From the UHGV virus genome UHGV-0117658: DNA of 15,978 nt; one strand, 5' to 3'. The translations under genes were made by a program, and so were the position numbers. Positions 1-15,978 of the stretch are shown here, one piece after another (positions within the stretch are counted from its first letter, which is position 1; each line of letters begins with the position of its first letter). The notes below the pieces were generated by a model. The model was not told the DNA's origin, did not search any database, and worked only from the letters and a program-made list of their open reading frames with translations. Source of the stretch: a virus.

Positions 1-995
1 TTGATGGCTTACGTGGAATTTGTGCAGCAATGGTTGCTGTATTCCATCTTTACTGGAGAGCCGGAGGAGAATCAGATATATACTGGTCTCTTGAGTACAT
101 TACACTCAGCAATGTAAAACGCGCCATATATCTAACAGGAGAGTTATCTGTTGGGGTCTTTTTTATGCTGTCTGCTTTTTTATTTTTCAAAAAGGCACTA
201 GCGGACTCCTTCGATGTAAAAAGCTTTGCAATTTCACGATTCATGCGAATTTACCCACCTGTAGTTGTTCTTTTATTTATAATATATATTGCAACATTTA
301 TCATGAATCCGGATAACCATACTCCAGTATCGCAATGGTTTATATCTTCATTACCATTTATATTCAATCCGCCTGGCGCTAACATCAATGGTGTATCGCT
401 CCAGATTGCCACATCTGGTGTGTTCTGGACGTTAGTCTGGGAATTACGCCTATACCTTGCAATTCCATTTTTATATCTGATAATGAAAAACATCAAATAT
501 AAAGAAGCATTTGTTATTTTTTTAATGGGATGTGTTTTATTATTCAAGTATTTTATAAACAATGAACAACACCTGAGTTATATAATGTATTTCCTTGCAG
601 GATTTCTTGTCGCTACAATCAAGAGCAACAAGCGCCCATCAGATATAATCTGCGCTTTATTATTATTCGCAGCCATATATTTTACTCGACATGCTTACAA
701 CACTACAACTCCGCTTTATATGTTTATTGTTTTCTACACAATAAAGTGCGGATGTGATTACTTTGGCTTACTTACATCCCTGCCTGTAACTATGCTGGGA
801 ACCTGCAGTTTCTCCCTTTATTTAGTTCATGGGATAACTCAAACAGTATCTAAACATTATTTATATAGTGCAGGAAACTATGTTTGGCAGATTTGTGCAA
901 TTATTGCGGCAGGTATCATTGCGCCGGTTATGTACAAATATGTCGAAAGTCGCAGCATCATACATAAGCGTCCTCAACTTCAGATTGCAAAGTAG
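1..995 (+). CDS. Acyltransferase family 3 integral membrane protein (putative polysaccharide O-acetyltransferase), 5'-partial; the reading frame is open from the window edge
   Basis: ORF 30..995 has no in-frame stop back to position 3; the upstream translation ...DGLRGICAAMVAVFH matches the N-terminal motif of acyltransferase-3 family enzymes (OafA/Oac type). Product is very hydrophobic with multiple predicted TM segments. Visibly AT-rich relative to the phage structural genes. Confidence 0.7.
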   Translation, partial: DGLRGICAAMVAVFHLYWRAGGESDIYWSLEYITLSNVKRAIYLTGELSVGVFFMLSAFLFFKKALADSFDVKSFAISRFMRIYPPVVVLLFIIYIATFIMNPDNHTPVSQWFISSLPFIFNPPGANINGVSLQIATSGVFWTLVWELRLYLAIPFLYLIMKNIKYKEAFVIFLMGCVLLFKYFINNEQHLSYIMYFLAGFLVATIKSNKRPSDIICALLLFAAIYFTRHAYNTTTPLYMFIVFYTIKCGCDYFGLLTSLPVTMLGTCSFSLYLVHGITQTVSKHYLYSAGNYVWQICAIIAAGIIAPVMYKYVESRSIIHKRPQLQIAK

Positions 996-1486: not shown

Positions 1487-2419
1487 CTACAGCGGCACCG
1501 CTGAGTAAACAGGCGTCTGATTGTCCGGGTTTCCGTCTGCGTCAAGCAGCTGAACGTCCACGGCATAACGTGGCCGGAATGGATCGGCAAAATTACCACT
1601 TTTCACGGGTTCAGTATGTGCCACCACTCTGGCCATCTTTGGCAGATGAAGCCCGGAAGCCAGTTCCGGATAATGGCTCTCAATCTGTCGTTGTGTCGGT
1701 GTTTTCTGAAGGGGGCTGCCTGTGACGCGGTTCCGGGGTGTCCAGGTGATAGTCATCGTGTCATTTGTAAGATGGACTTTGGTGACCCGTTCACCGTTAA
1801 GCTCAACGCCGGGTCGTATCGTCTGGATCACCGGTAACGTTATGGTATTCCCGCCAGCAGCCCCCTGGCTGAACTCTGCCGGCACTTCGACCGGACGACC
1901 GGTAAACAGTGACTTTTCAGCACCGCCGACGTAAAGCGAACCATCAGGCAACTGGTACCAGATGTAATCCTGGATACTGAATGCCCTGCCCAGGTTGTTC
2001 AGCAACTGATAGCCGGTACCGTTATGGGTGAAATGGGGGATCGGAGTATCGCTGTAAGACACATCGGGTACACTGACACCGATCCCGCTGTTTTCCGTCA
2101 GCCAGCCGGCTACATCCCTTAATGTCGGGTGCTGAAATGAACATGGCCACATCCTTTCAAAAACACCGGCCAGCTCACGAATGAACAGACGCTGATAACC
2201 GTTTTCAGCTGGTTGTGAACGTTCAACATAACCGGTAAACCAGCGCAAAAGCAGGTCGGTATATCCCACATCCAGCCGCACCAGTTTCCCGGTATAATCA
2301 GTGGTTGTCTCTGCGGTAATAAATCCCCGACCGCAACTGTTAAGCTCCAGTACCAGGCTGGCATCAGCCAGATGCACTTCATCCGTTGAAAGGTAAAGAC
2401 GTTTAACTGGTTTCATCAT
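1487..2419 (-). CDS. Hypothetical protein (310 aa), third gene of a coupled three-gene operon; no family recognised
   Basis: Long ORF; start ATGATG overlaps the stop of the upstream gene (TAATG coupling at 2417-2421); codon composition like neighbouring phage genes; no Walker or nuclease motif seen. Confidence 0.6.
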   Translation of the reverse strand: MMKPVKRLYLSTDEVHLADASLVLELNSCGRGFITAETTTDYTGKLVRLDVGYTDLLLRWFTGYVERSQPAENGYQRLFIRELAGVFERMWPCSFQHPTLRDVAGWLTENSGIGVSVPDVSYSDTPIPHFTHNGTGYQLLNNLGRAFSIQDYIWYQLPDGSLYVGGAEKSLFTGRPVEVPAEFSQGAAGGNTITLPVIQTIRPGVELNGERVTKVHLTNDTMTITWTPRNRVTGSPLQKTPTQRQIESHYPELASGLHLPKMARVVAHTEPVKSGNFADPFRPRYAVDVQLLDADGNPDNQTPVYSAVPL

Positions 2420-2964
2420 TAACCCAAAGCATCATTGACGGGCTTCAGCACCTTGCGTTCAAACCACGTCAGTTTTTCTTCATCTTCTCCGGCCGTCTGA
2501 CCACCGGATTGTTCCGCGCTGCCGGTTGTCTGTTTTTTCGCAGTGGTTTTGCCGGTTGATCTGGCTTCCCGCTTTTCCTGTACGCTAATATGTTCCGCCA
2601 GCGTGAAAGTCACCATCCAGGACATTTTCCCGTCCTGCTGTGGTGCATCCAGCATTCCGCTGAATGTGGCCTCACGAAAATTCACCGCTCTGGCAACCTC
2701 ATGCGCAACACGGTATGTCTGTCGTTTCCCGCTACTATCGGTAGCGCTGGCCAGTTCAAAGATACGCTTCAGAATCTCCGGATTTTTGAAAGGAATTTCG
2801 CCACTGATACGCAGCTCCTTTCCTTTTGCCCCCTGCTCAGATTTTGACGTTGCGCTGGTCTGCCCTGACTGGTCTTTATCCTGAAACTGCTGTGAGACTG
2901 TCACGCGCATATTCTTCAGCTGTATGGCCTCGCCGTTAAGCGCCAGTGTCGGGATCGAAGTCAT
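2419..2964 (-). CDS. Hypothetical protein (181 aa), middle gene of the three-gene operon; acidic, low-complexity C-terminal half
   Basis: ORF with ATG at 2964 preceded by aaagggaatgattc (SD-like); overlaps the upstream gene end by 29 nt and is stop/start coupled to the downstream gene. Confidence 0.55.
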   Translation of the reverse strand: MTSIPTLALNGEAIQLKNMRVTVSQQFQDKDQSGQTSATSKSEQGAKGKELRISGEIPFKNPEILKRIFELASATDSSGKRQTYRVAHEVARAVNFREATFSGMLDAPQQDGKMSWMVTFTLAEHISVQEKREARSTGKTTAKKQTTGSAEQSGGQTAGEDEEKLTWFERKVLKPVNDALG

Positions 2965-3661
2965 GAATCATTCCCTTTATTCCATCAAGATTATCGCCAA
3001 CCAGCATCATGGCAGCGGTGTAAACGGCAGACTGCTGCGGAATGTCCTTCACCAGTTCCAGTAACATGGTGTCGGTGTCTCCGCTGGCAGTAAAAACCCA
3101 CGCTCTGGCACTCTTCCCCTGTAAATCGTTCAGGCCGTTGGCCACATCACTGATAAGTTGGTCACGCAGCTGCGTGAACTCGCCCAGCTGTTTTTTCAGC
3201 CCTTCGATATCAAACCCGGCACCCGCCGCCTTTTGTGCCTGGCTGATTGCCGCAGCAGATAAAGCTGCCCTGCTGGTTGGTACAGACAGCGGAATGGACG
3301 CAGGTAACGCAGCGGCGGTTTTCGCAGGGATCTGCATCTTTTCAATAGCCAGCGCTGCGGCGGATTGCGCCAGCCGTTTGACCTGCGTGAATGCCGGGGC
3401 GGGGAAAATCCCGACCAGGTTATTCAGGCTGGCCATAAAGTTTTCCTGTGTCTGTCCGGTGACCATCATAATCACCACGTCCACATTCCCCCCTGTTCCG
3501 GCCAGGCGTTCAGCAAGATAGCGAACAGCATTAACCGGGCTGAGATATGCCCCGTTTGCTGTCTGCTGTCCCAGCCCATAAATCCACGGATGCGCAGGGA
3601 CGATCGAACAGTTCGACGCAGCAACAGAATCCGTGAAGGCCAGACGTGCTTCACGCCACAT
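2936..3661 (-). CDS. Hypothetical protein (241 aa from the internal ATG at 3661), first gene of the three-gene operon
   Basis: The ORF track gives 2936..3697, but the ATG at 3661 is preceded by GGAGGTG at proper spacing, whereas the 3697 start lies deep inside the Tfa-like reading frame. Ala-rich central region; no recognised domain. Confidence 0.55.
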   Translation of the reverse strand: MWREARLAFTDSVAASNCSIVPAHPWIYGLGQQTANGAYLSPVNAVRYLAERLAGTGGNVDVVIMMVTGQTQENFMASLNNLVGIFPAPAFTQVKRLAQSAAALAIEKMQIPAKTAAALPASIPLSVPTSRAALSAAAISQAQKAAGAGFDIEGLKKQLGEFTQLRDQLISDVANGLNDLQGKSARAWVFTASGDTDTMLLELVKDIPQQSAVYTAAMMLVGDNLDGIKGMIHDFDPDTGA

Positions 3662-4031
3662 TTCCAGGCACCTCCGGCCACACAATTTCCGGCGCATCTT
3701 CCGGTTGAATACGGTTCATTAAAACGCGGTATTTTTTCCATGCGGTAAGCAGCAGTGCTTCTTCTTCGGTCGCCATGTCTAAATCTACGGCATCCTGCAA
3801 TGTGGCAATGGCATCACTGGCCTGTTTAAGTAGTCTTTTCTTTTCTGCATCTGCCTCGCTGACTAATGCAGTTCGCATGGCCTCCGCATCATCCACCCAC
3901 GCCTTTCCATTCCATTTTTGCCAGGCATTAGCCGGGGCTGACGTGGTTGTCCCTTCCGGGTAAGCACCAGGCTCGGTGATTACCAGTTCATTACCGTTTG
4001 CGCGGTTGGCATCCAGCGCGGTAACAGCACA
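3651..4031 (-). pseudogene. Tail fibre assembly protein (Tfa/gpG family) C-terminal fragment with no upstream start; remnant of a tail-fibre module
   Basis: My own translation of this frame from 4031 downward gives ...ELVITEPGAYPEG...WQKWNGKAWV...[47 protein letters not shown], which closely parallels the lambda Tfa C-terminal half (QKWNGTAWV...[45 protein letters not shown], recalled from memory). The frame is closed by a stop just upstream of 4031 and lacks the Tfa N-terminal half. Confidence 0.6.
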
Positions 4032-4210
4032 TCACGCTTAAATTCCATTCGCTCAGCGCGGCTTTCAATCGCTGCAGCTGCGGCGACATCTTTCTCCAGC
4101 GCGACAATCTGAATATGCAGGCTGGTTTCCGTGTCCAGAGACTGCTGCTGTCGCAGTAACCGCTCCGCTTCAATTCGTGCGCTGTGGCGCTGTGCCGGTG
4201 ACAGTTGCAT
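3980..4210 (-). pseudogene. M: Terminase small (endonuclease) subunit gpM, N-terminal roughly 70 codons only, truncated by premature stop at the junction with the tfa fragment
   Basis: Sits immediately after the capsid gene N with a strong SD (agggggattta-ATG), as M does in P2. Begins MQLSPAQRH..., resembling the recalled P2 gpM N-terminus (MTSPAQRH...), but is 76 aa instead of about 247 aa; the downstream sequence switches frame into Tfa-like sequence. Confidence 0.5.
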
Positions 4211-4220
4211 TAAATCCCCC

Positions 4221-5249
4221 TTACTCGCCTGCCGGAGGCGCGACAGGTGCCCCGATAGCTACCGCACTTTCATCAAACGCGGCGTACAGTTCCGGATACT
4301 CAACCGCATAACCTTCGTTACGCAGGTATTTGTTTTCGTACTGTTTACGGTCTTCCACAAACTCCGCTTTACGCTGACGCGTGCCGCGCTGGGTGTAGAT
4401 GTGCAGGTTTGGCAGTGTCGTAACAATCATGCGTTTGCCTGGCATAAACGGCGGTACGTAAGCCGTGCGGCCGGCGATGCTGTCAGACAGCAGTTGCGCG
4501 GCGATCTTCTCCGTGGGTTTGTCTGCTTTCTGATACAGACGGAACGACTCCGCCGCGACCAGATCAGCGCCGACAAGAACCACCAGGCGTGGATCATTAC
4601 GGTACTGTGCCGGGATTTTGGCGTTGATAAGGTCGGAGGCCATTGCATCCAGCGACACGTAATCGCCTTTCCCGTCACCGTCAAGCACCACCGCATCAGT
4701 GATGATCTGCTGGCCGTCCTTCCACTCTTTGACGATCTGATGCCAGCCCTTGTTCACATCCTCGCCGTTCGGGTTGGTTTCCGCGTTCGTGGTCTCGGCC
4801 ACTTTGGTACCGTTAAAGCCGATACGCAGCATATCCAGCGCAAACGCCTGATTGGTGAACTCCTGAACACGCTGGAAAAACTCGTTTTCATCGCCGGCGT
4901 TCGCCCAGACAGAAAGCAACTGCCAGGTGAGTGCGGCGCATGAGTCGGTCTCGACCAGACTGTAATCATTACCACTCACGCCCACTTTCTTACGGAAGCG
5001 GCCATCCAGTACACGCCCGGTATACAGGCCAGAGCTGCCAACCGGAACCACCTGCCCCTGCAGCTGATCGACATCGGCAACGGTGATCAGATTCAGGAAA
5101 TCAGACTGCTCCATCAGCGCATTGCGCAGCTGGGTTTCTTTGGGGTCGGTGAGTGCAAACCAGCGTTCGCTGTCGGTCGCCCCGTAGGATTCACGCAGCC
5201 CGGTGTGATACTGAAGCAGAAACTCACGGGCTTTCGCATTTAATTGCAT
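4221..5249 (-). CDS. N: P2-family major capsid protein (gpN-like), 342 aa
   Basis: Size, position between the O-like and M-like genes, SD aaggaaaaagaat-ATG, and resemblance to P2 gpN as I recall it. Confidence 0.85.
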   Translation of the reverse strand: MQLNAKAREFLLQYHTGLRESYGATDSERWFALTDPKETQLRNALMEQSDFLNLITVADVDQLQGQVVPVGSSGLYTGRVLDGRFRKKVGVSGNDYSLVETDSCAALTWQLLSVWANAGDENEFFQRVQEFTNQAFALDMLRIGFNGTKVAETTNAETNPNGEDVNKGWHQIVKEWKDGQQIITDAVVLDGDGKGDYVSLDAMASDLINAKIPAQYRNDPRLVVLVGADLVAAESFRLYQKADKPTEKIAAQLLSDSIAGRTAYVPPFMPGKRMIVTTLPNLHIYTQRGTRQRKAEFVEDRKQYENKYLRNEGYAVEYPELYAAFDESAVAIGAPVAPPAGE

Positions 5250-5283
5250 ATTCTTTTTCCTTAAAGAAAAGTAGTGTTATCCC

Positions 5284-6123
5284 TTACAGGAAATTGAAGC
5301 CTTTTTTGCCCTTGCTGAATTTCTTGTCCGGCAGTTGAGTAACTTTGTTATTCAGCTTGCTGAAGTTTTTCACCAGCTCCGGCAGGTTCCCCACCAGACG
5401 CGCAAAATCTTCGGTGTCCACTACTTCCTTCACGGTGTCCACATCGTCCTGCACATCAGATACCGCTTCTTCCGCCTCACCCAGACGGGTTTCAATAGCA
5501 GATACGCGCTTATCAATGGCATCCAGCGCTTCAGCCAGCGCCTGTAAGGCATCAGACTGTGAAGGTTCCTGCTCCGGGGTCTGCTCCGGTTCTTCGATAC
5601 TGAAAAAATGGCGCCAGCCCTTTTTCGCTGTCTTTGACATTCCCTTTTCCTTTTTAAATTCCCTGACTTCATCAAACGCCAGCGGCTTGTATGGTCCGAT
5701 GCGTTTTCCCCTGGTGCGGCTGAAACGTAACCGTGTGGTGCTTACCCCGGCCGGACTGTCAGTAATGGCCAGTCCCTCAAGATAGGTTTTCCCGGTATTT
5801 CTGAAATTGCCGTCCGGTGTAAACTCCGGTGATAAAAATAAAAGCTGACCGTCTGCATTTGCCTGTAGCAATGAAATCGCCGGACAGAGGCGGGCATATA
5901 AACGAAGAATACCTTCATCATCCCGCTCGGCTTTTACTTCCAGCACCTCCCCCATATTCCCGAAATTACGGGAATGTTCCGGCCATAACAGCGCGGTATA
6001 CAAAGAGGGGTCATATAATTCAGCGGCATCAAGCAACCATTGTTCTTCAATAAATCGCTTATCAACCGTTTCACCCGCAGTGGCGATACAAATCCAGTTT
6101 GTTGCCAGTTGTGAACCTGACAT
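5284..6123 (-). CDS. O: P2-family capsid scaffolding protein (gpO-like), about 279 aa from the ATG at 6123
   Basis: The ORF track starts at 6183, but the in-frame ATG at 6123 has a perfect GGAGG SD and gives a length close to P2 gpO (284 aa). Acidic, coiled-coil-like C-terminal half typical of scaffolds; divergent from P as in P2. Confidence 0.8.
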   Translation of the reverse strand: MSGSQLATNWICIATAGETVDKRFIEEQWLLDAAELYDPSLYTALLWPEHSRNFGNMGEVLEVKAERDDEGILRLYARLCPAISLLQANADGQLLFLSPEFTPDGNFRNTGKTYLEGLAITDSPAGVSTTRLRFSRTRGKRIGPYKPLAFDEVREFKKEKGMSKTAKKGWRHFFSIEEPEQTPEQEPSQSDALQALAEALDAIDKRVSAIETRLGEAEEAVSDVQDDVDTVKEVVDTEDFARLVGNLPELVKNFSKLNNKVTQLPDKKFSKGKKGFNFL

Positions 6124-6266
6124 ATTGCCTCCGTTCATGCTGCGGTTTTCAGTATCGCCAATAAAATTAACCGCCGCATTCACTTCATTTCGGATATAGG
6201 CTATTAGCCGAACACATCAGAAATAAAGCGGGATTTAATATACAAACGCCCGTGCATAATGTGTGC
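6124..6266. promoter_or_regulatory. Divergent intergenic region between O and P; expected location of the divergent late promoters
   Basis: Positional inference from P2 gene organisation; no canonical TGT-N12-ACA dyad found here by eye. Confidence 0.4.
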
Positions 6267-8048
6267 ATGGCTAAATATTCAGAAGAATTAAAAGGCGTTG
6301 CGCGGGCGCTTTATTTAAAACGCTATACCCCGCAGGAAATTGCCAGCGAACTTAATCTGCCTAACAGACGCATTGTCTATTACTGGGCGGAGAAATATTG
6401 CTGGGCGGAATTACTCAGTCATGAATCCACCGAAGATGCATTAAACCGTCGCATTCAGTCACTGACATTACGTGAAGGGAAATCGGAGCTGGAGCTGCGG
6501 GAGCTGGACAGTCTCGTTTCTCACCTGGTGAAACTACGTGCACAGCACAATAAGCATCAGGAAAAGCTGGCAGAAATTAAACACAGTGAAAATGATGCGC
6601 CGGCGCGTCAGTCCGGTGGCGACGAAAAGCCCCGGAAACGTGGCAAGTACAAAAAGAACGACATCAGCGGACTGACACAGGAAGATTTTGACCGGTTCGC
6701 GCTGGAGCACCTTTTCGGTTACCAGAAACACCTTCGCGCTAATCTTCATCAGCAAATCAGGAACATCCTGAAAAGCCGCCAGATTGGTGCAACCTGGTAT
6801 TTCTCAATAGAAGCCTTTGAGAATGCGGTCATGACAGGCGATCCGCAAATCTTCCTGTCCGCATCAAAGGCTCAGGCGGAAGTATTCCGCAGCTATATCG
6901 TCAACATTGCGGAGCAGTATTTCGGCGTGGAGCTGACGGGAAACCCCATCCGCCTCTCCAACGGCGCGGAGATGCGATTCCTGTCCACCAACAAGAACAC
7001 CGCCCAGTCATACAGCGGCCATCTGTACTGCGATAAATATTTCTGGGTACCCAACTTTGCAAAATTAAACGAAGTGGCCAGCGCGATGGCCACACACGAC
7101 AAATGGCGAACCACCTACTTTTCCACCCCCAGCAGCAAAACGCACCAGGCGTACCCGTTCTGGACTGGTGAAGAATGGAAGCGCGGTGACAAAAAACGCG
7201 CGCGCGTACAATTTCCCACGGAGAAGGAGCTGCGCGACGGTGGACGGTTATGTCCTGATGGGCAGTGGCGCTACATCATCACAATGGAAGACGCGAGCGC
7301 AGGCGGGTTTAATCTCGCCAGCATCGGGAAGCTGCGCAACCGCTACAACCGCGACACTTTCAACATGCTGTATATGTGCGTGTTCGTGGACAGCAAGGAC
7401 AGCGTATTTTCGTTCTCTCACGTAGAACGCTGCTGTGTAGATCCGGATATCTGGGAGGATCATGACGAAAACCTGCCCCGGCCGTTCGGCAACCGTGAAG
7501 TGTGGGCGGGTTATGACCCGGCTCGCAGCGGAGACACCTCCACCTTCGTGATCATCGCGCCGCCGATAGTGGCCGGCGAAAAATTTCGGGTACTGCGTGT
7601 ATTCCACTGGCAGGGGATGAACTGGAAGTGGCAGGCGGCACAGATTAAGAAGCTGTTTGGCCAGTACAACATGACCTACATCGGCATTGATATCACTGGA
7701 CTGGGTAGCGGTGTCTTTGAAGACGTTCAGCACTTTGCCATGCGTCAGGCAGTGGCGATCCGCTACGGCGTCGAGACCAAAAATCGTCTGGTGATGAAGA
7801 TGATCGACGTTATCGAAGACGGCCGCGTGGAATGGGATAAGGAGAAGACCGAAATCGCCGCCAGCTTTATGACCATCCGCCGTACGTCCACGGCCAGCGG
7901 CAACGCAATGACTTTCGTCGCCGATCGCACAGCAGAAACAGGACACGCAGACAGTTTCTGGGCTATCGCCCATGCCATTGACAACGAGCCATTAAACTTT
8001 GAAAACCAGCGAAAATCACGCTGGGGTAACTTAGGGAAAGCAGCATGA
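6267..8048 (+). CDS. P: Terminase large (ATPase) subunit, gpP-like, about 593 aa
   Basis: Conserved blocks shared with P2 gpP as recalled (LYLKRYTPQEIA, NILKSRQIGATWYF, SASKAQA.VFRSYI, FLSTN.NTAQS, YFSTPS.KTHQAYPFWTG, GYDP.RSGD). Start taken at the ATG at 6267 rather than the track's GTG at 6252; stop overlaps the Q start (ATGA at 8045-8048). Confidence 0.85.
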   Translation: MAKYSEELKGVARALYLKRYTPQEIASELNLPNRRIVYYWAEKYCWAELLSHESTEDALNRRIQSLTLREGKSELELRELDSLVSHLVKLRAQHNKHQEKLAEIKHSENDAPARQSGGDEKPRKRGKYKKNDISGLTQEDFDRFALEHLFGYQKHLRANLHQQIRNILKSRQIGATWYFSIEAFENAVMTGDPQIFLSASKAQAEVFRSYIVNIAEQYFGVELTGNPIRLSNGAEMRFLSTNKNTAQSYSGHLYCDKYFWVPNFAKLNEVASAMATHDKWRTTYFSTPSSKTHQAYPFWTGEEWKRGDKKRARVQFPTEKELRDGGRLCPDGQWRYIITMEDASAGGFNLASIGKLRNRYNRDTFNMLYMCVFVDSKDSVFSFSHVERCCVDPDIWEDHDENLPRPFGNREVWAGYDPARSGDTSTFVIIAPPIVAGEKFRVLRVFHWQGMNWKWQAAQIKKLFGQYNMTYIGIDITGLGSGVFEDVQHFAMRQAVAIRYGVETKNRLVMKMIDVIEDGRVEWDKEKTEIAASFMTIRRTSTASGNAMTFVADRTAETGHADSFWAIAHAIDNEPLNFENQRKSRWGNLGKAA

Positions 8049-9064
8049 AAAAACGGAAATACAGGGAACGCCGCACCGCCAGCAAGCCGCGCCATATGAG
8101 CCTTATTACCCTGGGTAAACCGGAACCCATTCTGACGACCGGCACAAACTACACAGACGTCTGGTATGACAATGAAGCGGAACACTGGACGCTCCCGATT
8201 GACCGGCTGGCGCTGGCGCAACTGGTGAACCTGAACGCGCAGCACGGCGGTGTGCTGTATGCCCGTCGCAATATGGTGACGGCAAACTATAAAGACGGCG
8301 GACTGACGCATGAACAGCTTGGTGCAGCCGTGTTCGACTGGCTGACCTTCGGTGATGTGGCCATTCTGAAAGTGCGTAACGGCTGGGGGGATGTGGTGGC
8401 ACTGTACCCGCTGCCGGCACTCTATACCCGCCAGCGTAAGACCGGGGAGTTTGTGGTACTGCAGCAGGGTGAACCGATGATTTATCCGCCTGAAGATATT
8501 ATTTTTCTCAGGCAGTACGATCCGCAACAGGCGATTTATGGTCTGCCGGATTATATCAGCGGTATCCATTCTGCCCTGCTTAACGGTGAGGCAACAATTT
8601 TTCGTCGGCGTTACTACCATAACGGCGGACACACAGGTGGCATGATCTACTGTAACGACCCAAATATGACTGATGAAGTGGAAGAAGAAATTATTCAGAA
8701 GCTGGAGCAGTCAAAGGGGATCGGGAACTTCAGCACCATGTTTGTGAACATCCCCAAAGGCGATCCGGACGGCATCAAATTTATCCCGATTGGGGATATC
8801 AGCGCCAAAGATGAGTTTCAGAACATCAAGAGCATCAGCGCCCAGGACGTACTGACCGCGCATCGATTCCCGGCAGGACTGGCGGGGATTATCCCGACGA
8901 ACGGCGCAGTAATGGGAGATGTTGAGAAAGCGTCCAAAACCTACCGCAAAGCAGAAATTTTGCCCATTCAGCGCATGTTTACCGCCGCAGTGGAACAGGA
9001 AAGTGATGTACCGCCCCACCTGTACCTTAATTTCCTGAAAGACAGTGAGCTGGAAGGTGATTAA
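8045..9064 (+). CDS. Q: Portal protein, gpQ-like, 339 aa
   Basis: Translationally coupled to P; size and order (P then Q) match the P2 packaging module; internal motifs (LFRR.YY.NG.H.G, DGIK.IP) resemble P2 gpQ as recalled. Confidence 0.85.
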   Translation: MKKRKYRERRTASKPRHMSLITLGKPEPILTTGTNYTDVWYDNEAEHWTLPIDRLALAQLVNLNAQHGGVLYARRNMVTANYKDGGLTHEQLGAAVFDWLTFGDVAILKVRNGWGDVVALYPLPALYTRQRKTGEFVVLQQGEPMIYPPEDIIFLRQYDPQQAIYGLPDYISGIHSALLNGEATIFRRRYYHNGGHTGGMIYCNDPNMTDEVEEEIIQKLEQSKGIGNFSTMFVNIPKGDPDGIKFIPIGDISAKDEFQNIKSISAQDVLTAHRFPAGLAGIIPTNGAVMGDVEKASKTYRKAEILPIQRMFTAAVEQESDVPPHLYLNFLKDSELEGD

Positions 9065-9117
9065 TGTTCGCAAAAAGGCTAAAATATCATCGTTTTCCAA
9101 CTTCCGGAGCGATGGAT

Positions 9118-9393
9118 ATGCGGGTAATGAAGGTTTACTGTCCGGTATGTGAGGCAAGGGCTGTTATCAAAAAAACAGCCCGAAAACACAAGGAACTGTC
9201 GGATTTATATTGCGCGTGTACCGATGTTGAATGTGGTCACACTTTTGTGATGAATATGACATTCTCACATACCATCAGCCCCAGCGCCAAATCCAGCGAT
9301 GCGTTGATCGCCACTATCTGTAACAGCCTTGATATCCAGCAAAAGCAGCTGATGTTAAAGTTTCTGAGTCAGGACGGCACTGCTGCCGCATAG
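9118..9393 (+). CDS. ogr: Ogr/Delta-family zinc-finger late transcription activator, about 91 aa with a C-terminal extension
   Basis: CPVC-x19-YCACTDVECGHTFV matches the Ogr/Delta signature (C-x2-C ... C-x-C-x4-C-G-H-T-F). Start chosen at the ATG at 9118 with GGAG 9 nt upstream; the track ORF 9064..9393 is in the same frame. Confidence 0.7.
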   Translation: MRVMKVYCPVCEARAVIKKTARKHKELSDLYCACTDVECGHTFVMNMTFSHTISPSAKSSDALIATICNSLDIQQKQLMLKFLSQDGTAAA

Positions 9394-9398
9394 AAAAA

Positions 9399-9426
9399 AG
9401 CACCGCTACCGGTGCTTTTATTTTCT
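9399..9426 (+). terminator. Rho-independent terminator (stem agcaccg/cggtgct, loop ctac, then ttttatttt) immediately after the ogr-like gene; A-run upstream makes it potentially bidirectional
   Basis: Read directly from sequence. Confidence 0.6.
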
Positions 9427-9532
9427 GAGATGTAACAGATTCCCATCTATCAACGTCGATGAATGACCAAGTGATTAATAGTCCCCCCCTCCTAAACATG
9501 ATATTATCTTTCCAAATTTTGGGAGGCATCTT

Positions 9533-10252
9533 ATGTTAATAGTCTCAGTTCTTAAATGTAGTAAAGAGTTTACCCCTAAACACGCCCAATGGCTTCATCG
9601 TCAGTTCAAAGATATTCCATCTATATGTTTAACCGATGCAGATAATATTCCTGGAGTTAACACAACCCCTTTGCTTTATAACTGGCCGGGATGGTGGTCT
9701 AAAATTGAACTATTTAATCCTAATCACCCAGTCCTTGGAGACCAAGATTTACTCTATTTTGACGTAGATGTTGTGGTCACGGGAGATATTCATATTTTCG
9801 AAGGTGCGAAGAAATTTACAATGCTTCGGGAGTTTAACCATGCCTCAAGAGTAAACTCATCAATAATGATGATTCCGGCGTCGATTAAAAAGACGATTTG
9901 GGAACAATTCATTATTGATCCTGAGAAAATTATGCGCAATTGTCAGACTGAAGACAAATGGGGTGATCAGGGATTTCTCGGTAGCATCATAAAACCAGCC
10001 CTATGGCAGGATATCATTCCTGGCTCAATTGTTAGTTATAAATGTGACATCGCCACCCCCTCGATGATTGGCTTCAATGCAAATTTAGCCTCTGAGGCTG
10101 CGACAGGGAAAGTCCCTGATAATGTGGCGGTTGTTTGCTTTCATGGCAGTCCACGCCCCTGGCGTACTGGTTTTGATTGGGTTCCTTCGTTTTCCCTGCG
10201 GGATACTCTGTACGGTAAATTAAAGAACTTTAAAATAAGAATGAAGCAATAA
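9533..10252 (+). CDS. Glycosyltransferase family 8-like (LgtC/RfaJ-type) nucleotide-sugar transferase, 239 aa; AT-rich accessory gene
   Basis: DxD motif in LYFDVDVVV, WGDQGFL and CFHGSPRPW blocks parallel GT8 motifs (YLDIDVLV, QDQDILN, HYCGPAKPW in LgtC, recalled from memory). Strong SD gggagg 6 nt before the ATG. Clearly lower GC than the flanking phage genes. Confidence 0.6.
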   Translation: MLIVSVLKCSKEFTPKHAQWLHRQFKDIPSICLTDADNIPGVNTTPLLYNWPGWWSKIELFNPNHPVLGDQDLLYFDVDVVVTGDIHIFEGAKKFTMLREFNHASRVNSSIMMIPASIKKTIWEQFIIDPEKIMRNCQTEDKWGDQGFLGSIIKPALWQDIIPGSIVSYKCDIATPSMIGFNANLASEAATGKVPDNVAVVCFHGSPRPWRTGFDWVPSFSLRDTLYGKLKNFKIRMKQ

Positions 10253-10320
10253 AGATAACGCCCCTATTGCTTCAATGTTCGCTCCTTCCCCTAACAATAA
10301 AGTTAGGCACTAGTGAACCG

Positions 10321-12978
10321 TTACTTTTCCCGGCCAAATATCCAGCAGCGGAATGTTTCCGGCATCCGTTGCATATCCCCTTTACCACGATTATGGCGCT
10401 CACTTACCGCGCTGCGCGTGGTGCTTTGTCTGATAAACCGGCGCTCATTGCCGTTTTTAAGCAGCTTTTTAATTTCCGTTAACGTGAACGGAATACGCTG
10501 CCGGTGTGCTGCGGCGACCTCTTCCATGTGATTGAAATTAACCGCGATTTCATTTTCATCTGATGAATGATTGATGCCATAAGGTGCCAGTTCATCCAAG
10601 TAATCAAACAGCTCCCAGAACTCCTGCACCAGAGGATGATCCTTTTTAAGTGCCTGACAACGTTCAACGGCCAGCGCGGTGATGGCTTCACGCGTTTTTT
10701 CTATACGTTCAACCGGCACCGGTACAACAAGTGCAAGCGCCTCCAGCAAGCCCACAAGCTGCGCGTGATTCTTTGCAATACGGATATGGCGAATACTGCT
10801 ATTAGACTCCAGCTCATTCCTAGCTCGCTCGTACCCCCTGCCGAACGTCTGCATGATTTCTTTTTCGCGCATGGTGGCCAGTAATGTGAATCCGGATACC
10901 TGGCTAACGGGGAGTTGTTCAAGTCGTTCTGCAGCGTGGCGCGTCTGAATGGACTGGCCGCGCTTGTCGGTATAGATGTGGATGATACGCTCCAGAAACG
11001 CCTTGCTGCCGTCTGTGTCGGCATTTTGCGCTATCACAATACTTCCCCTGAACGGCGGCTCATACGTCTCGTTATTGTTCGATTTGATACCCACGGCGCG
11101 GGAGGCACGACCGTTATACAGTGATTTCAGCTCGTCCCAGTCAAAAGCGCGTTGCTTGGCGTTATCGGTAGTACGGTCGCCCTCAATCAGCACAACCGGC
11201 AGATTACCGACCTGGGCGAAGTTACGGCCACGCGCGGCGGCGGTAGATTTAGATGGGTCAAACCCTTCGTATTCCTCACGGCCGGCGAGCTTCCAGAGAA
11301 ATTCTATCAGCGTGGATTTACCTGTCCCCGGCTCGCCCACGATTTCCAGAAACGGAAATGACTTGTCACGCTCGCGGATTTGTTCGGCAAACAGCGACCC
11401 CAGCCAGAACGCCAGCGCCACATACCCTTTTTCACCAAATGCCGTCCAGATATCGTCTACCCAACCCGTAGTAAACTCGTTCAGCTTCGGATTCAGATCC
11501 AGCGCCGGCGTGAGGCTCAGGCTCTTAACGCTGGCACTGTTGATTTCGAAGTAATCCTCGTCGTTCATCTCATACAGCCGGCCATCGCAAACGGCCACGC
11601 GGTTAAACAACCAGGCGGCATAATCCTTGTTATAGCCGATGAAATTCTGCGTCTTTACCTCTTTGATTTCAGGGAGGCGCATCTGGATGAACTTATCCAG
11701 CTGTTTGGTGCTGCCTGTGTACACCGCCCCTTTGGCGATGTGCAGCAGACGCTTTTTGAACTCGGCGGAGCTGGTGAGCTGATTAGCCGTGAAAGTATCT
11801 TTCACGGCTGGCCGGTTAGGCATACTGACTTTCACGTAATACCAGGACTCGTCCGTAGGTTCAGACCGCTGAAAGTAAAGCGGCGTCAGCCAGCAGTTAG
11901 CTATTTCGGTCACGCCGCCTGACTCTTTAACCGCCCGTTCTTTGGCCTCCCACTCCATCACCACTTCGGTACCGGTATTGGTGATGCGCTCATAGGCTCG
12001 CATATACCTGTCCAGATCCAGCTCAAACCAGTACATGCGGGAGTTATGCTCAAAGTAGAACGAGTGCCACTCGTTATGCTGATGCATGAGCAGCGCTTTC
12101 TCAGTCGGGCTTTTTGCCAGAAGGAGATCGCCATAGTAGCGATAATTTTTAATGTCCGACTTACTGAACCGGTTACGTAACAACAGGTCATTCCAGTCCA
12201 GCGATGCCGATGATTTCACCGGCTGCGCGGCACGAGTTTTCCATCCTGCAGCATCACTACGGGCAGCGAACGCCAGTGTGTGCTTTGTGCCGGCTTTATC
12301 GCCGTCAAACGCCCATACAAGACGTGGACGTGGTTTTTCACCCAGTTCTTTGGCCAGCGTATCCAGTGCGGCCAGCGGATAGTTGTTACTGCTCAGTGTG
12401 GCAACTGCAGGTAACCCTGCCTGGCACAGACTCAGCGCGTTGAAGATTCCCTCAGTGATCCAGATTTCGTTCACTTCCTGCAGGTTGATAAAGGGAGGAA
12501 CCCACCAGTGACCGACATAGCTTCCCCTGATGTTGGCTTTCTGCTTACCGAAGCGCTGCGGCTGGTCAATGATGCGCTCCCATGTTGCACCGCATGACAG
12601 CGAAAATCTGACCGTTGCCGACCCCATGCCATCTTTCACGAATGCACCCTGGGTAAAACAGCCTTTTAATGGCTCAGTCTCCAGCCCTCTGGCCTCGCGC
12701 AGATACGCCTCAGCTACTGCATGGGGGTTATCTTCTGTGGTCTGGTAACGTTTTGACCAGTCTTCAAAGATATCCGGATACAGCTCTTTCACGACAATCT
12801 GATGTGCGCAGTTATTTTCACGGCCACATTTCAGAATCCAGGGCTTTTCTATGCTGGTAAATAATTCGCGCTTACGACAGGCAGGGCAAACGCCCTGCTG
12901 CAAATACTTATCCCGCTCTTTAAATTCAAAGTCCCGAACAAGACGGCGCACAACGTCCTGTTGTATCGTTTCGTTCAT
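10321..12978 (-). CDS. Replicative primase-helicase, P4-alpha-like architecture (N-terminal Cys4 zinc ribbon, TOPRIM primase domain, C-terminal P-loop NTPase), about 885 aa
   Basis: CPACRK...CGRENNCAH zinc ribbon; TOPRIM-like ITEGIFNALSL and FDGDKAG motifs; Walker A GEPGTGKST. The track ORF begins at a TTG (13014); the first ATG (MNETIQQ) at 12978 is used here. Confidence 0.8.
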   Translation of the reverse strand: MNETIQQDVVRRLVRDFEFKERDKYLQQGVCPACRKRELFTSIEKPWILKCGRENNCAHQIVVKELYPDIFEDWSKRYQTTEDNPHAVAEAYLREARGLETEPLKGCFTQGAFVKDGMGSATVRFSLSCGATWERIIDQPQRFGKQKANIRGSYVGHWWVPPFINLQEVNEIWITEGIFNALSLCQAGLPAVATLSSNNYPLAALDTLAKELGEKPRPRLVWAFDGDKAGTKHTLAFAARSDAAGWKTRAAQPVKSSASLDWNDLLLRNRFSKSDIKNYRYYGDLLLAKSPTEKALLMHQHNEWHSFYFEHNSRMYWFELDLDRYMRAYERITNTGTEVVMEWEAKERAVKESGGVTEIANCWLTPLYFQRSEPTDESWYYVKVSMPNRPAVKDTFTANQLTSSAEFKKRLLHIAKGAVYTGSTKQLDKFIQMRLPEIKEVKTQNFIGYNKDYAAWLFNRVAVCDGRLYEMNDEDYFEINSASVKSLSLTPALDLNPKLNEFTTGWVDDIWTAFGEKGYVALAFWLGSLFAEQIRERDKSFPFLEIVGEPGTGKSTLIEFLWKLAGREEYEGFDPSKSTAAARGRNFAQVGNLPVVLIEGDRTTDNAKQRAFDWDELKSLYNGRASRAVGIKSNNNETYEPPFRGSIVIAQNADTDGSKAFLERIIHIYTDKRGQSIQTRHAAERLEQLPVSQVSGFTLLATMREKEIMQTFGRGYERARNELESNSSIRHIRIAKNHAQLVGLLEALALVVPVPVERIEKTREAITALAVERCQALKKDHPLVQEFWELFDYLDELAPYGINHSSDENEIAVNFNHMEEVAAAHRQRIPFTLTEIKKLLKNGNERRFIRQSTTRSAVSERHNRGKGDMQRMPETFRCWIFGREK

Positions 12979-13017
12979 AAATAATCCAGATGTGAAATAA
13001 TGGGTAAAAGGCAAAAA

Positions 13018-13236
13018 CTATATTCTGTACTGCTTGTTATATCGCTCATGTGTCATTAGTTCCCAGCTTCTGCCCTTATCCTTACTCAGTAATCGCCAGC
13101 GATAAGAAACATGAACAGAGAAATAATGTTTTGGCTTAATAACCTGATATACCTTTTTGCCGTTGTAATATTCTGTCAGCACTGAAAATGCCTTGTGAAT
13201 GACACTTTCACTTGCATGAGAGGTCACTGTAAGCAT
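13018..13236 (-). CDS. Possible small basic protein (72 aa), start 2 nt after the exonuclease stop; uncertain
   Basis: ORF only; AT-rich; no SD recognised; occupies the otherwise 260-bp gap between the exonuclease and primase genes. Confidence 0.25.
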   Translation of the reverse strand: MLTVTSHASESVIHKAFSVLTEYYNGKKVYQVIKPKHYFSVHVSYRWRLLSKDKGRSWELMTHERYNKQYRI

Positions 13237-13238
13237 CG

Positions 13239-13808
13239 TTATTTCACACTGGCTATTTTTACAAGATACATCCAGACATAAGAAACAACTTTAGCCTGAT
13301 GAATGGCATCATATAAAGCGTGATGTTTAACACCATCAAACTTAATAATATTACGAACATTCAGCCCAAGTGTTTTTGACAGTTCAACAACCGTTCTTAC
13401 ATCACGGTCATTCCAGTAGTACCAAAGTGGATCGGCAAACCCGCATTTCTCTGATGCATTACGTAAAATAACATTGTCGAACGCTGCACTATTCCCCCAT
13501 ACCTGTACTTTAGATGGGTCAGAATGCTCAGTAATAAAAGCTTCCAGATTAGCTAACGTCAGAGGCAAGTCCAGACAATCGTCATTAAGCAGCTCGCTAC
13601 GCGCTTCGGCATCCTGACGCATCCACCATAATACGGTTTCTGACCCCATAGTGAGACCGTGGCCTACACAGCTGCCCAGGCTGACACGTTGATAAAACTG
13701 TTCACCCATTTCGCCAGTTTCAGGGTCAAAGAATACAGCACCGATAGAAGCAATCGCAGAAGTCGGTTTATTATCCATTGTTTCAAGGTCAATCATTAAA
13801 TGTTTCAT
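13239..13808 (-). CDS. DEDDh-type 3'-5' exonuclease (DnaQ-like fold), 189 aa
   Basis: N-terminal MIDLET motif (Exo I, D-x-E), a central ...FD... block and C-terminal H-x4-D (HHALYDA) are characteristic of the DnaQ/RNase T superfamily; SD aaggaaccgat-ATG. Confidence 0.75.
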   Translation of the reverse strand: MKHLMIDLETMDNKPTSAIASIGAVFFDPETGEMGEQFYQRVSLGSCVGHGLTMGSETVLWWMRQDAEARSELLNDDCLDLPLTLANLEAFITEHSDPSKVQVWGNSAAFDNVILRNASEKCGFADPLWYYWNDRDVRTVVELSKTLGLNVRNIIKFDGVKHHALYDAIHQAKVVSYVWMYLVKIASVK

Positions 13809-13817
13809 ATCGGTTCC

Positions 13818-14153
13818 TTAACGTTGGGAAGCTGCAACAGATTTAAGATGCGAGTTATTACTTTTTAACGCTGTGGTAGCCAGCGACATAAGACCGGAAA
13901 TGTTATTTTCAGTTGGTATATTTCCGCCAAATACCATAAGCGTGATTTTGTGCAGTTCTTCAAAATCATCACTATCATTATTAAAGCGAGCAGTGGAGGT
14001 TATACCCTCAAGGCATTTTGCAAGCTGAATGTTTAATTCCATTAACTGCAAGCCATCGCTATGTACAGAGAATGTTTCTTTATCAATAGTTTTTGCCTGA
14101 GCGTGATAGTTTTGCAACAGACTACGAATCAGCGTGGCATATTTAGTCTTCAT
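13818..14153 (-). CDS. Hypothetical protein (about 111 aa from the ATG at 14153), AT-rich early-region gene
   Basis: ORF with GGGGA SD before the ATG at 14153 (the track's 14165 start is a TTG); no recognised domain. Confidence 0.5.
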   Translation of the reverse strand: MKTKYATLIRSLLQNYHAQAKTIDKETFSVHSDGLQLMELNIQLAKCLEGITSTARFNNDSDDFEELHKITLMVFGGNIPTENNISGLMSLATTALKSNNSHLKSVAASQR

Positions 14154-14179
14154 GATAATCCCCAATAATATTTAGTTTA

Positions 14180-14461
14180 CTAACGAGCACTTTTATCTTT
14201 CGTGAATAAACGGTTCTTCCAGTCATGCCATTCAGGCGGGGCAATTTGAGCCAAATGAATGGCATAAGCATCCCATTCCCCCCGATGGATATAGATTTCC
14301 CCACCTTTTTTTGATGGATTTAGAGGGTCTTTCATGCGGATTACCGGCAGTTTTCCAGCCGTGGCCATTTTGCGAATTGCAGCAGGCGTTTTGCCTATAT
14401 ATTCGGCAAAAAGCTCAGGGGTCACCAACTCTGAAAGCGCCTTTTCTGCTGGTTCCTTCAT
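14180..14461 (-). CDS. cox: Cox-like/excisionase-family small DNA-binding protein (93 aa), divergent from the repressor
   Basis: Position and orientation identical to P2 cox relative to C and int; size 93 aa (P2 Cox 91 aa); ...GKLPVIRMKDP... resembles the Cox/Xis-type wing region as recalled. Confidence 0.65.
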   Translation of the reverse strand: MKEPAEKALSELVTPELFAEYIGKTPAAIRKMATAGKLPVIRMKDPLNPSKKGGEIYIHRGEWDAYAIHLAQIAPPEWHDWKNRLFTKDKSAR

Positions 14462-14569
14462 CTGTGGTATCCTTCGTTAGTTTGGGTTCCTAGGGCGCTT
14501 TAAGTCGTTCTAGGGTTCTTTTGTCAAGGTTCTTTTGTAAGAACCAATAATAGTTACGATACAAGAACC
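14462..14569. promoter_or_regulatory. Immunity switch region between cox and C: divergent promoters with multiple GGTTCT half-sites (direct and inverted) and two CTAGGG motifs
   Basis: Direct reading: gggttcc (14484), gttctaggg (14507), ggttcttttgt x2 (14514, 14529; 15-bp period), inverted aagaacc x2 (14539, 14563); ctaggg at 14490 and 14510. Confidence 0.55.
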
Positions 14570-14869
14570 ATGTCAAGAAATTATGCGGAGAAACTCCGGC
14601 AGATCCGGAAAGCTGAAGGGTTAACTCAAAAAGATTTTTCAGAGCTTACTGGGGTAGCTCTTGGAACAATAAAAAAGTACGAAACTGGCCATCAGCCAGC
14701 TCGTGCAGAAGTCTTAGAAAGTGTTATAGAGGTACATATGTTTGAAAAATATACACTCTGGTTAATGACAGATAAGACGGCACCAATTGCGGGGCAGGTG
14801 TCCCCGTCTCTCTCCCCTGATGGGCAAGACAACATAACATCATCCCGTTCCACCCGGAAAATTGGCTAA
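14570..14869 (+). CDS. C: P2 C-type immunity repressor (HTH), 99 aa
   Basis: Exactly 99 aa like P2 C; HTH LTQKDFSELTGVALGTIKKYETG; the FEKYTLWLMTDKTAPIAGQVSP block parallels P2 C (FTKYTLWFMTNQIAPESGQIAP, recalled from memory). Confidence 0.8.
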   Translation: MSRNYAEKLRQIRKAEGLTQKDFSELTGVALGTIKKYETGHQPARAEVLESVIEVHMFEKYTLWLMTDKTAPIAGQVSPSLSPDGQDNITSSRSTRKIG

Positions 14870-14935
14870 ACATCTGGTTTTTCTATGCGTTAGCGCAAAA
14901 TTTACATAATGATTCATACATCGGAGGGCTTCGCT

Positions 14936-15928
14936 ATGTCGATTAAGAAGCTTGATGATGGTCGTTTTGAAGTGGACGTTAGACCGCGCGGAACCTCAGG
15001 AAGAAGGATTCGACGCAAATTTGACAGAAAGGCGGAAGCACAGGCATACGAGCGGTATGTACTGACAAACTTTCACGATAAAGAATGGCAGGATAAACCC
15101 GCAGACAGGAGGCTTGTATCCGAGTTAATTTCTTTATGGTGGAGCTACCATGGAAAGAATCACAACTATGGTGACTCATATAAAAAGCGTTTGGAAAAAA
15201 TCAACCGAGAAATGGCGGAACCCAGAGTGTACGAGCTTACCCGCAACTTTCTGATGAAATATCGTGCAGAACGACTTCATAGTGGAGTATCTGCTGGCAC
15301 GGTAAACAGGGATTTCTGTTCCATGTCCAGCATGTTCAGTTTGCTGATAGATATGGAAGAATTTCATCACGAAAACCCGTTTCGCGCCGTGAAGAAGTTA
15401 CGTCTGGAAAACACAGAAATGTCATTTCTGTCCGAAGAAGAGATCCACCATTTGCTGAATGCCCTTACAGGGGATGATCGCAGAGTTGTCGTTCTTTGCC
15501 TGAATACAGGAGCACGATGGGGTGAAGCCAGTAATCTTAAAGCTGAAAACGTGATAAGTAACCGTGTGACCTTTGTTAAGACCAAAACCGGCCCAGCTCG
15601 TACTGTTCCGATATCGAAGGAAATCGCGGACTACATCCTTACACGCAAATCGGGGAAATTGTTCGATACCAACTATGAGCGAGTTCGCGATGTTCTTCGT
15701 AAGATTAAGCCAGACTTGCCGAAAGGTCAGGCACTGCATGTTTTACGCCATACCTTCGCAACACATTTCATGATCAACGGCGGGAATATCATCACGCTAC
15801 AGCGTATTTTGGGTCATACAACAATCGAGCAAACAATGACATATGCTCACTTCGCCCCAGATTATCTGACTGATGCCATACGATTTAACCCTATGCGTGG
15901 GAGTGTCCACATAATGTCCACCGACTAG
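14936..15928 (+). CDS. int: P2-family tyrosine integrase, about 330 aa
   Basis: Begins MSIKKLDDGRFEVDVRP after a GGAGG SD (the track ORF starts 9 codons upstream); catalytic-region blocks CLNTGARWGEA, NRVTFVKTKT, HVLRHTFATHFMINGG, ITLQRILGHT.IEQTM.YAHFAP match P2 Int as recalled. Confidence 0.9.
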   Translation: MSIKKLDDGRFEVDVRPRGTSGRRIRRKFDRKAEAQAYERYVLTNFHDKEWQDKPADRRLVSELISLWWSYHGKNHNYGDSYKKRLEKINREMAEPRVYELTRNFLMKYRAERLHSGVSAGTVNRDFCSMSSMFSLLIDMEEFHHENPFRAVKKLRLENTEMSFLSEEEIHHLLNALTGDDRRVVVLCLNTGARWGEASNLKAENVISNRVTFVKTKTGPARTVPISKEIADYILTRKSGKLFDTNYERVRDVLRKIKPDLPKGQALHVLRHTFATHFMINGGNIITLQRILGHTTIEQTMTYAHFAPDYLTDAIRFNPMRGSVHIMSTD

Positions 15929-15950
15929 GGCATTTTAGGGTGTATTAGGG
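15926..15950 (+). repeat. Three TAGGG direct repeats at a 10-bp period overlapping the int stop codon; candidate arm-type/Cox-type protein-binding sites of the attachment region
   Basis: Direct reading: cTAGGGcatttTAGGGtgtatTAGGGtta; the same pentamer occurs twice in the cox-C switch region. Confidence 0.45.
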
Positions 15951-15978
15951 TTAATAAGGCGCTCATAACATATTGATT

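Follow-up and report, generated by a model that had tools for sequence, protein, structure and literature searches.

A portal-adjacent Ogr/Delta-family gene in a defective P2-family prophage is very probably a late-gene activator in the normal layout of HP1/K139/ESSI-2-type phages

The Ogr/Delta family of zinc-finger proteins is defined by the four-cysteine motif CX2CX22CX4C (PMC3931495). In the P2 reference record, cosL and a terminator adjoin the portal gene Q, and ogr lies after D, before attP and int. P4, which lacks capsid genes, encodes Delta, a 166-aa protein in which the Ogr domain is duplicated in tandem. A different order is also on record: ogr lies between the portal and replication genes in K139 and Smhb1 (PMC8537503), and cos adjoins attP, not the 3' side of the portal gene, in HP1/HP2 and phiCTX (PMC2771037).

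We analysed a stretch of 15,978 nucleotides (virus genome UHGV-0117658; hereafter, the window) in which an Ogr-like gene directly follows the portal gene. An earlier note on this DNA took the P2 and 186 layout, with ogr near the attachment site, as its expectation, and the P2 reference record agrees with that description; from the departure, the note suggested a rearrangement or a different regulatory wiring. The window was found to be almost wholly one P2-family prophage, with the following content.

30-995, plus strand: acyltransferase moron (GC 0.37)
1487-3896, minus strand: four tail-end genes or gene fragments
1487-2419, minus strand: last tail gene, truncated (310 of 567 aa encoded)
3651-3896, minus strand: C-terminal stub of the tail-fibre-assembly gene (partial Pfam match)
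3980-4210, minus strand: N-terminal stub of terS (partial Pfam match)
4221-5249, minus strand: major capsid protein, gpN homologue (Pfam Phage_cap_P2 at 1e-97)
5284-6123, minus strand: capsid scaffold, gpO homologue, first gene of the leftward late cluster (Pfam Phage_GPO; start as annotated in NT1F10)
6124-6266: O-P intergenic region
6267-8048, plus strand: terminase large subunit terL, gpP homologue (Pfam Terminase_6N, Terminase_6C and Terminase_5; start as in NT1F10)
8045-9064, plus strand: portal, gpQ homologue (Pfam Phage_portal; annotated as portal in relatives)
9118-9393, plus strand: Ogr/Delta-family zinc-finger gene, conserved core ORF (91 aa, MRV...; Pfam PF04606, PHROG 603)
9533-10252, plus strand: glycosyltransferase moron (PHROG 1962, GC 0.41)
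10321-13014, minus strand: Toprim/DUF5906 primase-helicase, P4-alpha-like (PHROG 1139)
13018-14165, minus strand: small early genes
14180-14461, minus strand: Cox-like gene
14570-14869, plus strand: C-like repressor
14909-15928, plus strand: integrase

The two low-GC morons occupy different places, the glycosyltransferase with the ogr terminator and the primase gene as its neighbours, and the acyltransferase at the att-proximal end; both are likely conversion genes that modify LPS or O-antigen. A gpA-type nicking endonuclease, as in P2, takes the place of the primase-helicase in ESSI-2, ev015, YenM_324, K139 and HP2, so that primase-helicase against gpA is a module swap among otherwise syntenic phages. 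This swap of the replication module raises the question of which DNA form is packaged.

The core ORF ran on the plus strand from the ATG at 9118 to the TAG at 9391-9393 and encoded 91 aa. Its product matched Pfam Ogr_Delta (PF04606) at 57.7 bits (E=1.1e-15; profile positions 2-47 of 47), against a gathering cut-off of 26.3 bits, and PHROG 603, 'transcriptional regulator', at 1e-33. The CX2CX22CX4C motif was intact at C8, C11, C34 and C39, numbered from the 9118 start, and the alignment showed the four cysteines to be invariant among the window protein, P2 Ogr, K139 orf13 and the HP2 homologue. Pfam recognized a single Ogr domain, and tblastn found this to be the sole Ogr-like gene within the window. 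Therefore, on the Pfam and PHROG matches and the cysteines shared with P2 Ogr, the earlier note was right to place the gene with the Ogr/Delta-type activators, and its further statements that no other such gene is present, that this one directly follows Q on the same strand and that it exceeds P2 Ogr in length (91 aa versus 72 aa) were confirmed by tblastn, gene order and length.

Identity to P2 Ogr was 26 % over 38 residues, and the protein failed the NCBIfam equivalog model for Ogr (NF007241 / PRK09678) at 17.8 bits versus a cut-off of 116. By these profile scores, it is a member of the Ogr/Delta Pfam family and not an Ogr equivalog; it belongs to the K139-orf13/HP1-type subfamily. This subfamily has Asn at the position aligned to Tyr42 of P2 Ogr, the site of the rpoA109 suppressor; because of this substitution, the contact with the RNA polymerase alpha subunit may differ from that of P2 Ogr. 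A profile search against solved structures returned only sub-threshold zinc-ribbon matches of the RPB9/TFIIS type (E>=0.013), and no sequence-related structure. A weak Pfam match to Lar_restr_allev (21.6 bits) fell under its cut-off of 28.6.

We compared the gene order with that of relatives. In the window, terL, portal and ogr lie on the same strand ahead of the replication module, represented by the primase gene (10321-13014). The nearest sequenced phage was Escherichia phage ESSI2_ev239 (Peduoviridae, Evevirus; ev239), in which the order is terL-portal-'transcriptional regulator'-...-primase-cox-C-int. In addition, an intact 29-kb prophage at raiA-pheL in E. coli NT1F10 was 99.9 % identical to window positions 3998-15978, and its portal gene is followed by an 'ogr/Delta-like zinc finger family protein' (WP_000457450.1). 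The terL-portal-ogr order was present in ev239, ev015, ev040, ESSI-2, Yersinia YenM_324, K139 (orf13), HP2, Salmonella SI7 and Pseudomonas BIBS67, and among sequenced phages the P-Q-ogr order spans at least eight Peduoviridae genera. K139 carries an extra small gene, orf14, between the portal gene and orf13; Pseudoalteromonas C5a has the portal-ogr order with one gene inserted between the two; and Burkholderia PhiBP82.2 keeps the P2-like place, with ogr after gpD. Among the 80 IMG/VR loci encoding a homologue (57-100 % identity), the portal gene lay directly upstream on the same strand in 79, and the lone exception was a deletion variant. That is, the portal-ogr order is normal, and has been described before, for a large branch of the P2 family, the HP1/K139/ESSI-2 type. 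We also noted that an Ogr-like ORF between portal and orf14 of HP2 is left unannotated in its record (NC_003315.1 9302-9553, minus strand; 6001-6252 in our copy, L003); its product is 41 % identical to the window protein and keeps the four cysteines.

The earlier note also remarked that a P2-type cos is not evident after Q. This observation holds: the P2 cos 19-mer was not found anywhere in the window at <=3 mismatches, nor near Q at <=5 mismatches; searches of the window with the P2 and 186 cos 19-mers at <=3 and <=5 mismatches gave only chance-level 5-mismatch matches inside genes. In the ESSI-2/Evevirus group, the candidate cos is GGCGGGTGCGGTGTAG, downstream of the last tail gene. The ESSI-2 record carries the same 15-mer, GCGGGTGCGGTGTAG, at both ends (L010 1-15 and 28751-28765), and the contig ends of ev239 and ev015 stop inside the same cos motif, beside adaptor sequence. 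In the NT1F10 prophage, the motif CCGCAGGCGGGTGCGGTGTAGCGCC lies at 3070-3094 (L007, the coordinates of this prophage), with the acyltransferase moron on one side and the last tail gene on the other. The HP2 record ends at the syntenic place, between orf35 and int, with the related motif GGCGGGGG. Both the relatives and the intact NT1F10 sibling thus have cos beyond the 3' end of the tail genes, close to the morons, attP and int. The candidate GGCGGGTGCGGTGTAG shows a loose relation to GGCGAGGCGGGGAAAGCAC, the cos of P2, and to GGCGGGGGAGGAAG, the motif at the HP2 ends. As a separate matter of record quality, the RefSeq records of ev239 (NC_049392.1, 1-116 and 29127-29203) and ev015 (NC_049395.1, 1-48) retain Nextera adaptor remains at their ends, and that of ev239 also carries a 116-nt chimeric piece resembling a tail-fibre gene, plus a poly-A tail.

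The cos motif of the lineage had no match in the window, because it falls within one of two deletions that blastn against NT1F10 revealed.

1489/1490, no strand: junction of a 1.3-kb deletion (L007 2744-4044 missing)
3998/3999, no strand: junction of an 11.4-kb deletion (L007 6555-18000 missing)

The smaller deletion takes cos and the 3' part of the last tail gene. Read as a circle, the P2 order is int-early-cos-Q-P/O...tail-ogr-att, and that of the window's lineage is int-early-ogr-Q-P/O...tail-cos-(morons)-att; ogr and cos occupy exchanged positions in the two. These data bear on the suggestion of a rearrangement, which supposes that in a P2/186-type genome a local event carried ogr away from the end of the tail operon near att and placed it behind Q, with simultaneous loss or displacement of cos. 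In its favour, ogr is placed differently in P2, and the window lacks a P2 cos. However, the same order is found in every close relative and in many distant ones, including virion-derived genomes and the near-identical intact prophage; it is already in the literature (PMC8537503, PMC2771037); and the real rearrangements of the window are the deletions at 1489/1490 and 3998/3999, which leave Q-ogr untouched. We give this explanation almost no credence, and the rearrangement did not survive the synteny comparison, which found Q-ogr to be normal in intact relatives and cos to lie elsewhere. Instead, the gene is very probably the late-gene activator of an HP1/K139/ESSI-2-type Peduoviridae prophage; in this type, the Ogr-family gene normally stands last in the P-Q late operon, with cos at the opposite end of the late region, and ogr has not been rearranged here.

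At the larger junction, with 2 nt of microhomology, the N-terminal stub of terS is fused to the C-terminal stub of the tail-fibre-assembly gene. This deletion removed the L/adaptor (head-completion) gene and all sheath, tube, tape-measure, baseplate, fibre and lysis genes. The prophage of the window is defective, because the deletions took terS through the tail and lysis genes, and cos; after these losses, which include most of terS, the activator can no longer lead to virions of its own. Other deletions of the same prophage were seen in further strains and viral contigs (E. coli PK5, L098; L013; L021), with fusions of the last tail gene to capsid, of scaffold to terL, and of tail genes to ogr; all of them keep ogr, glycosyltransferase, primase, the immunity genes and int. 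This suggests that the raiA-pheL prophage of E. coli has repeatedly and independently decayed with retention of the early half, ogr and the morons.

Such short versions in several genomes could also be read as a P4-like or capsid-encoding satellite of 16 kb, whose Delta-like activator would switch on the late genes of a helper phage and thereby hijack its tails, and the gene content fits this in part: an integrase, a Cox-like gene, a P4-alpha-like primase/helicase (Toprim + DUF5906) and an Ogr/Delta gene are present, along with capsid genes without tail genes. However, phage ev239 and the 99.9 % identical intact prophage both contain the part that the window lacks. The junctions cut ORFs (terS, tail-fibre assembly, last tail gene) and differ among the window, PK5, L013 and L021, indicating independent decay and not a conserved satellite design. 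In addition, cos is deleted and hence the DNA is not packageable, and the protein carries one Ogr domain where P4 Delta has two in tandem. A P4-like satellite is expected to have a two-domain Delta, no capsid genes of its own and a cos; the window has none of these three properties. We therefore regard a satellite as highly improbable. A 15.4-kb record, 'Salmonella phage S.Kent 1-2-1', was considered as a natural short element and set aside, the record being an unverified, unannotated assembly node.

The sequence around the Ogr-like gene of this decayed prophage contains several conserved elements.

9057-9062, plus strand: GTGATT, weak -35, paired with the candidate -10 TAAAAT
9064-9117, plus strand: possible 18-codon basic N-terminal extension (frame open in 42 of 42 distinct relatives; RefSeq long form)
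9080-9085, plus strand: TAAAAT, candidate -10 of a promoter belonging to ogr (conservation)
9106-9110, plus strand: GGAGC, Shine-Dalgarno sequence for the 9118 start (invariant in alignments)
9396-9419, plus strand: intrinsic terminator closing the terL-portal-ogr unit (10-bp stem and T-run)

If the in-frame ATG at 9064, which overlaps the portal stop codon as TAATG, is used, the gene (9064-9393) encodes a long form of 109 aa, and this form is the one annotated in RefSeq (WP_000457450.1). The frame 9064-9117 stayed open in all 42 distinct relatives despite containing the conserved TAAAAT, and stops occurred in the other two frames of this region in 42/42 and 11/42 relatives. The ATG at -54 was present in 38 of the 42. 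A long form coupled to the portal gene is plausible, because the frame between the two ATG codons is open throughout these relatives and encodes a basic peptide. K139 and HP2 have the short form only, without the 18-codon extension. The ATGCG start and the GGAGC Shine-Dalgarno sequence of the short form were invariant among relatives, and GGAGC, TAAAAT and the in-frame ATG at -54 kept a fixed spacing in about 50 distinct relatives. Two forms of the protein may be made, from the starts at 9064 and 9118.

TAAAAT lay at exactly -38 to -33 in 48 of 51 distinct upstream sequences. The codon at this site was always xTA even where the amino acid changed, and the next codon was AAA in 40 of 42 relatives; for these reasons, the constraint appears to act at the DNA level, which points most simply to the -10 element of a short transcript. 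A sigma-70 consensus scan called no promoter upstream of ogr, and the TAAAAT candidate comes from conservation alone. Downstream, the claim of a strong terminator after the gene was upheld: the hairpin at 9396-9419 had a stability of -16.2 kcal/mol (z=-5.2), and 0 of 200 shuffled sequences were equally stable. The terminator scan of the window found no terminator between terL, portal and ogr.

Late promoters under Ogr/Delta control canonically carry TGT-N12-ACA at about -55, and we searched for this target. It did not occur in the O-P gap (6124-6266), and its seven matches in the window all lay within genes. The gap contained a different element.

6189-6212, no strand: dyad TTCGGATATAGGCTATTAGCCGAA in the divergent O-P intergenic region, candidate operator of the Ogr-like activator (conservation)

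The TTCGGATAT...CCGAA dyad occurred as one copy per genome, always in the O-P gap. It took the form TTCGG-N13/14-CCGAA in the window, NT1F10, ev239, ev015, ev040, ESSI-2, YenM_324 and K139, with a longer spacer in HP2, and was absent from the P2 genome. Among 75 IMG/VR loci, the dyad was strict in 58; in a further 16, the left half was kept and the right half was degenerate, and in one, both halves were degenerate. The dyad is kept from Haemophilus to Vibrio to E. coli, though these phages have unlike early and immunity modules (primase versus gpA nickase; C versus CI/CII), and across genera it co-occurs with the Ogr-like gene. From this pattern, we infer that the Ogr-like protein would be the shared regulator that best fits as the binder of the dyad; another factor could bind it. 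Some phages have extra dyad half-sites about 10 nt away. In the HP2 record, the dyad bears no label other than 'repeat_region most likely contains promoters for late genes', and a text search of the literature for the dyad sequence returned nothing relevant.

The lack of TGT-N12-ACA in the O-P gap, the distance from P2 Ogr and the weak Lar_restr_allev match might together suggest a zinc-ribbon protein with another role, such as alleviating restriction in the manner of Lar or assisting the portal in structure or packaging, with late transcription controlled otherwise. We consider this improbable: the Ogr_Delta match was well above threshold with the exact CX2CX22CX4C spacing, these phages, whose early modules differ, have no other candidate late activator in common, and the gene co-occurs with the O-P dyad across genera.

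Taking the gene as a late-gene activator, we propose the following scheme, in which activation, DNA binding and the promoter are drawn from conservation and from knowledge of P2 Ogr, 186 B and P4 Delta. The first Ogr-like protein would come from a weak promoter belonging to the gene, with TAAAAT at 9080-9085 as the -10. As a C4 zinc-finger protein like Ogr, B and Delta, it would switch on the divergent O and P late promoters, probably through the single dyad TTCGGATAT-N-CCGAA at 6189-6212 and not through the TGT-N12-ACA of P2. Read-through from the P promoter via Q into ogr would then give positive feedback; such read-through should reinforce ogr because Q runs into ogr without an intervening terminator, start and stop codons overlap, and the terminator comes after ogr. 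By analogy, the wiring logic looks like that of P2, in which ogr closes a late operon at its 3' end, has its own promoter and uses the terminator of that operon. The suggestion of a different regulatory wiring is therefore only half upheld: the logic looks the same, whereas the operon is P-Q and not F-D, and the probable operator is a different dyad.

We further propose, tentatively, that the PHROG 603 subfamily may have a DNA specificity of its own, acting at a single bidirectional TTCGGATAT-N-CCGAA site in the O-P gap and not at several TGT-N12-ACA sites, and may come in two forms, a long one made from the late transcript by translational coupling to the portal gene and a short one from the internal TAAAAT promoter. 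In the searched literature, we found no description of either the operator or the two-start arrangement, and it is in these that a modest residual interest lies. A Q-ogr junction without cos is no ground for flagging a rearrangement, which corrects an expectation built on P2 and 186 only. As a discovery, this carries little weight; its by-products are useful for annotation, namely the cos motif of the ESSI-2/Evevirus group, a candidate late operator unlike the P2 consensus, the unannotated HP2 ORF and the repeated prophage decay.

Finally, we compared the locus with the named systems. The homologues of K139 (orf13), HP1/HP2, ESSI-2, YenM_324, ev239 and Smhb1 belong to the same subfamily as the window protein and are 41-63 % identical to it, that of HP2 being the most divergent. 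Homologues of the K139/HP2/ESSI-2/ev239 type and the window protein share the motif FVMN(L/M)(T/S)(F/Y)SHT(L/I)SPSAK, as well as a tail of about 40 aa at the C-terminus. The 18-codon extension is confined to the enterobacterial members (window, ev239, ESSI-2 and YenM_324), and K139 and HP2 are without it. HP1-type relatives resemble the window in having ogr adjacent to portal on the same strand with a terminator after it, the O-P dyad, and cos away from portal; unlike theirs, the window's copy belongs to a prophage that has suffered deletions and lost cos.

P2 Ogr, like 186 B and PSP3 Pag, resembles the window protein as a small C4 protein (CX2CX22CX4C, PF04606) of a P2-family phage with divergent O and P operons. 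In the P2 record, a single terminator is labelled 'for ogr transcript and F operon', just as the terminator is shared with ogr in the window. The two differ in length (91-109 aa in the window versus 72 aa for P2 Ogr), in position (after Q in the window versus after D in P2), in the operon that precedes ogr (P-Q versus F-D) and in late control (one candidate region versus four late promoters). P4 Delta shares with the window protein the Ogr/Delta zinc-finger family, and the window element, like P4, also carries a P4-alpha-like primase/helicase and an integrase; in contrast to P4, the window has one Ogr domain and the P2-type N, O, P and Q genes.
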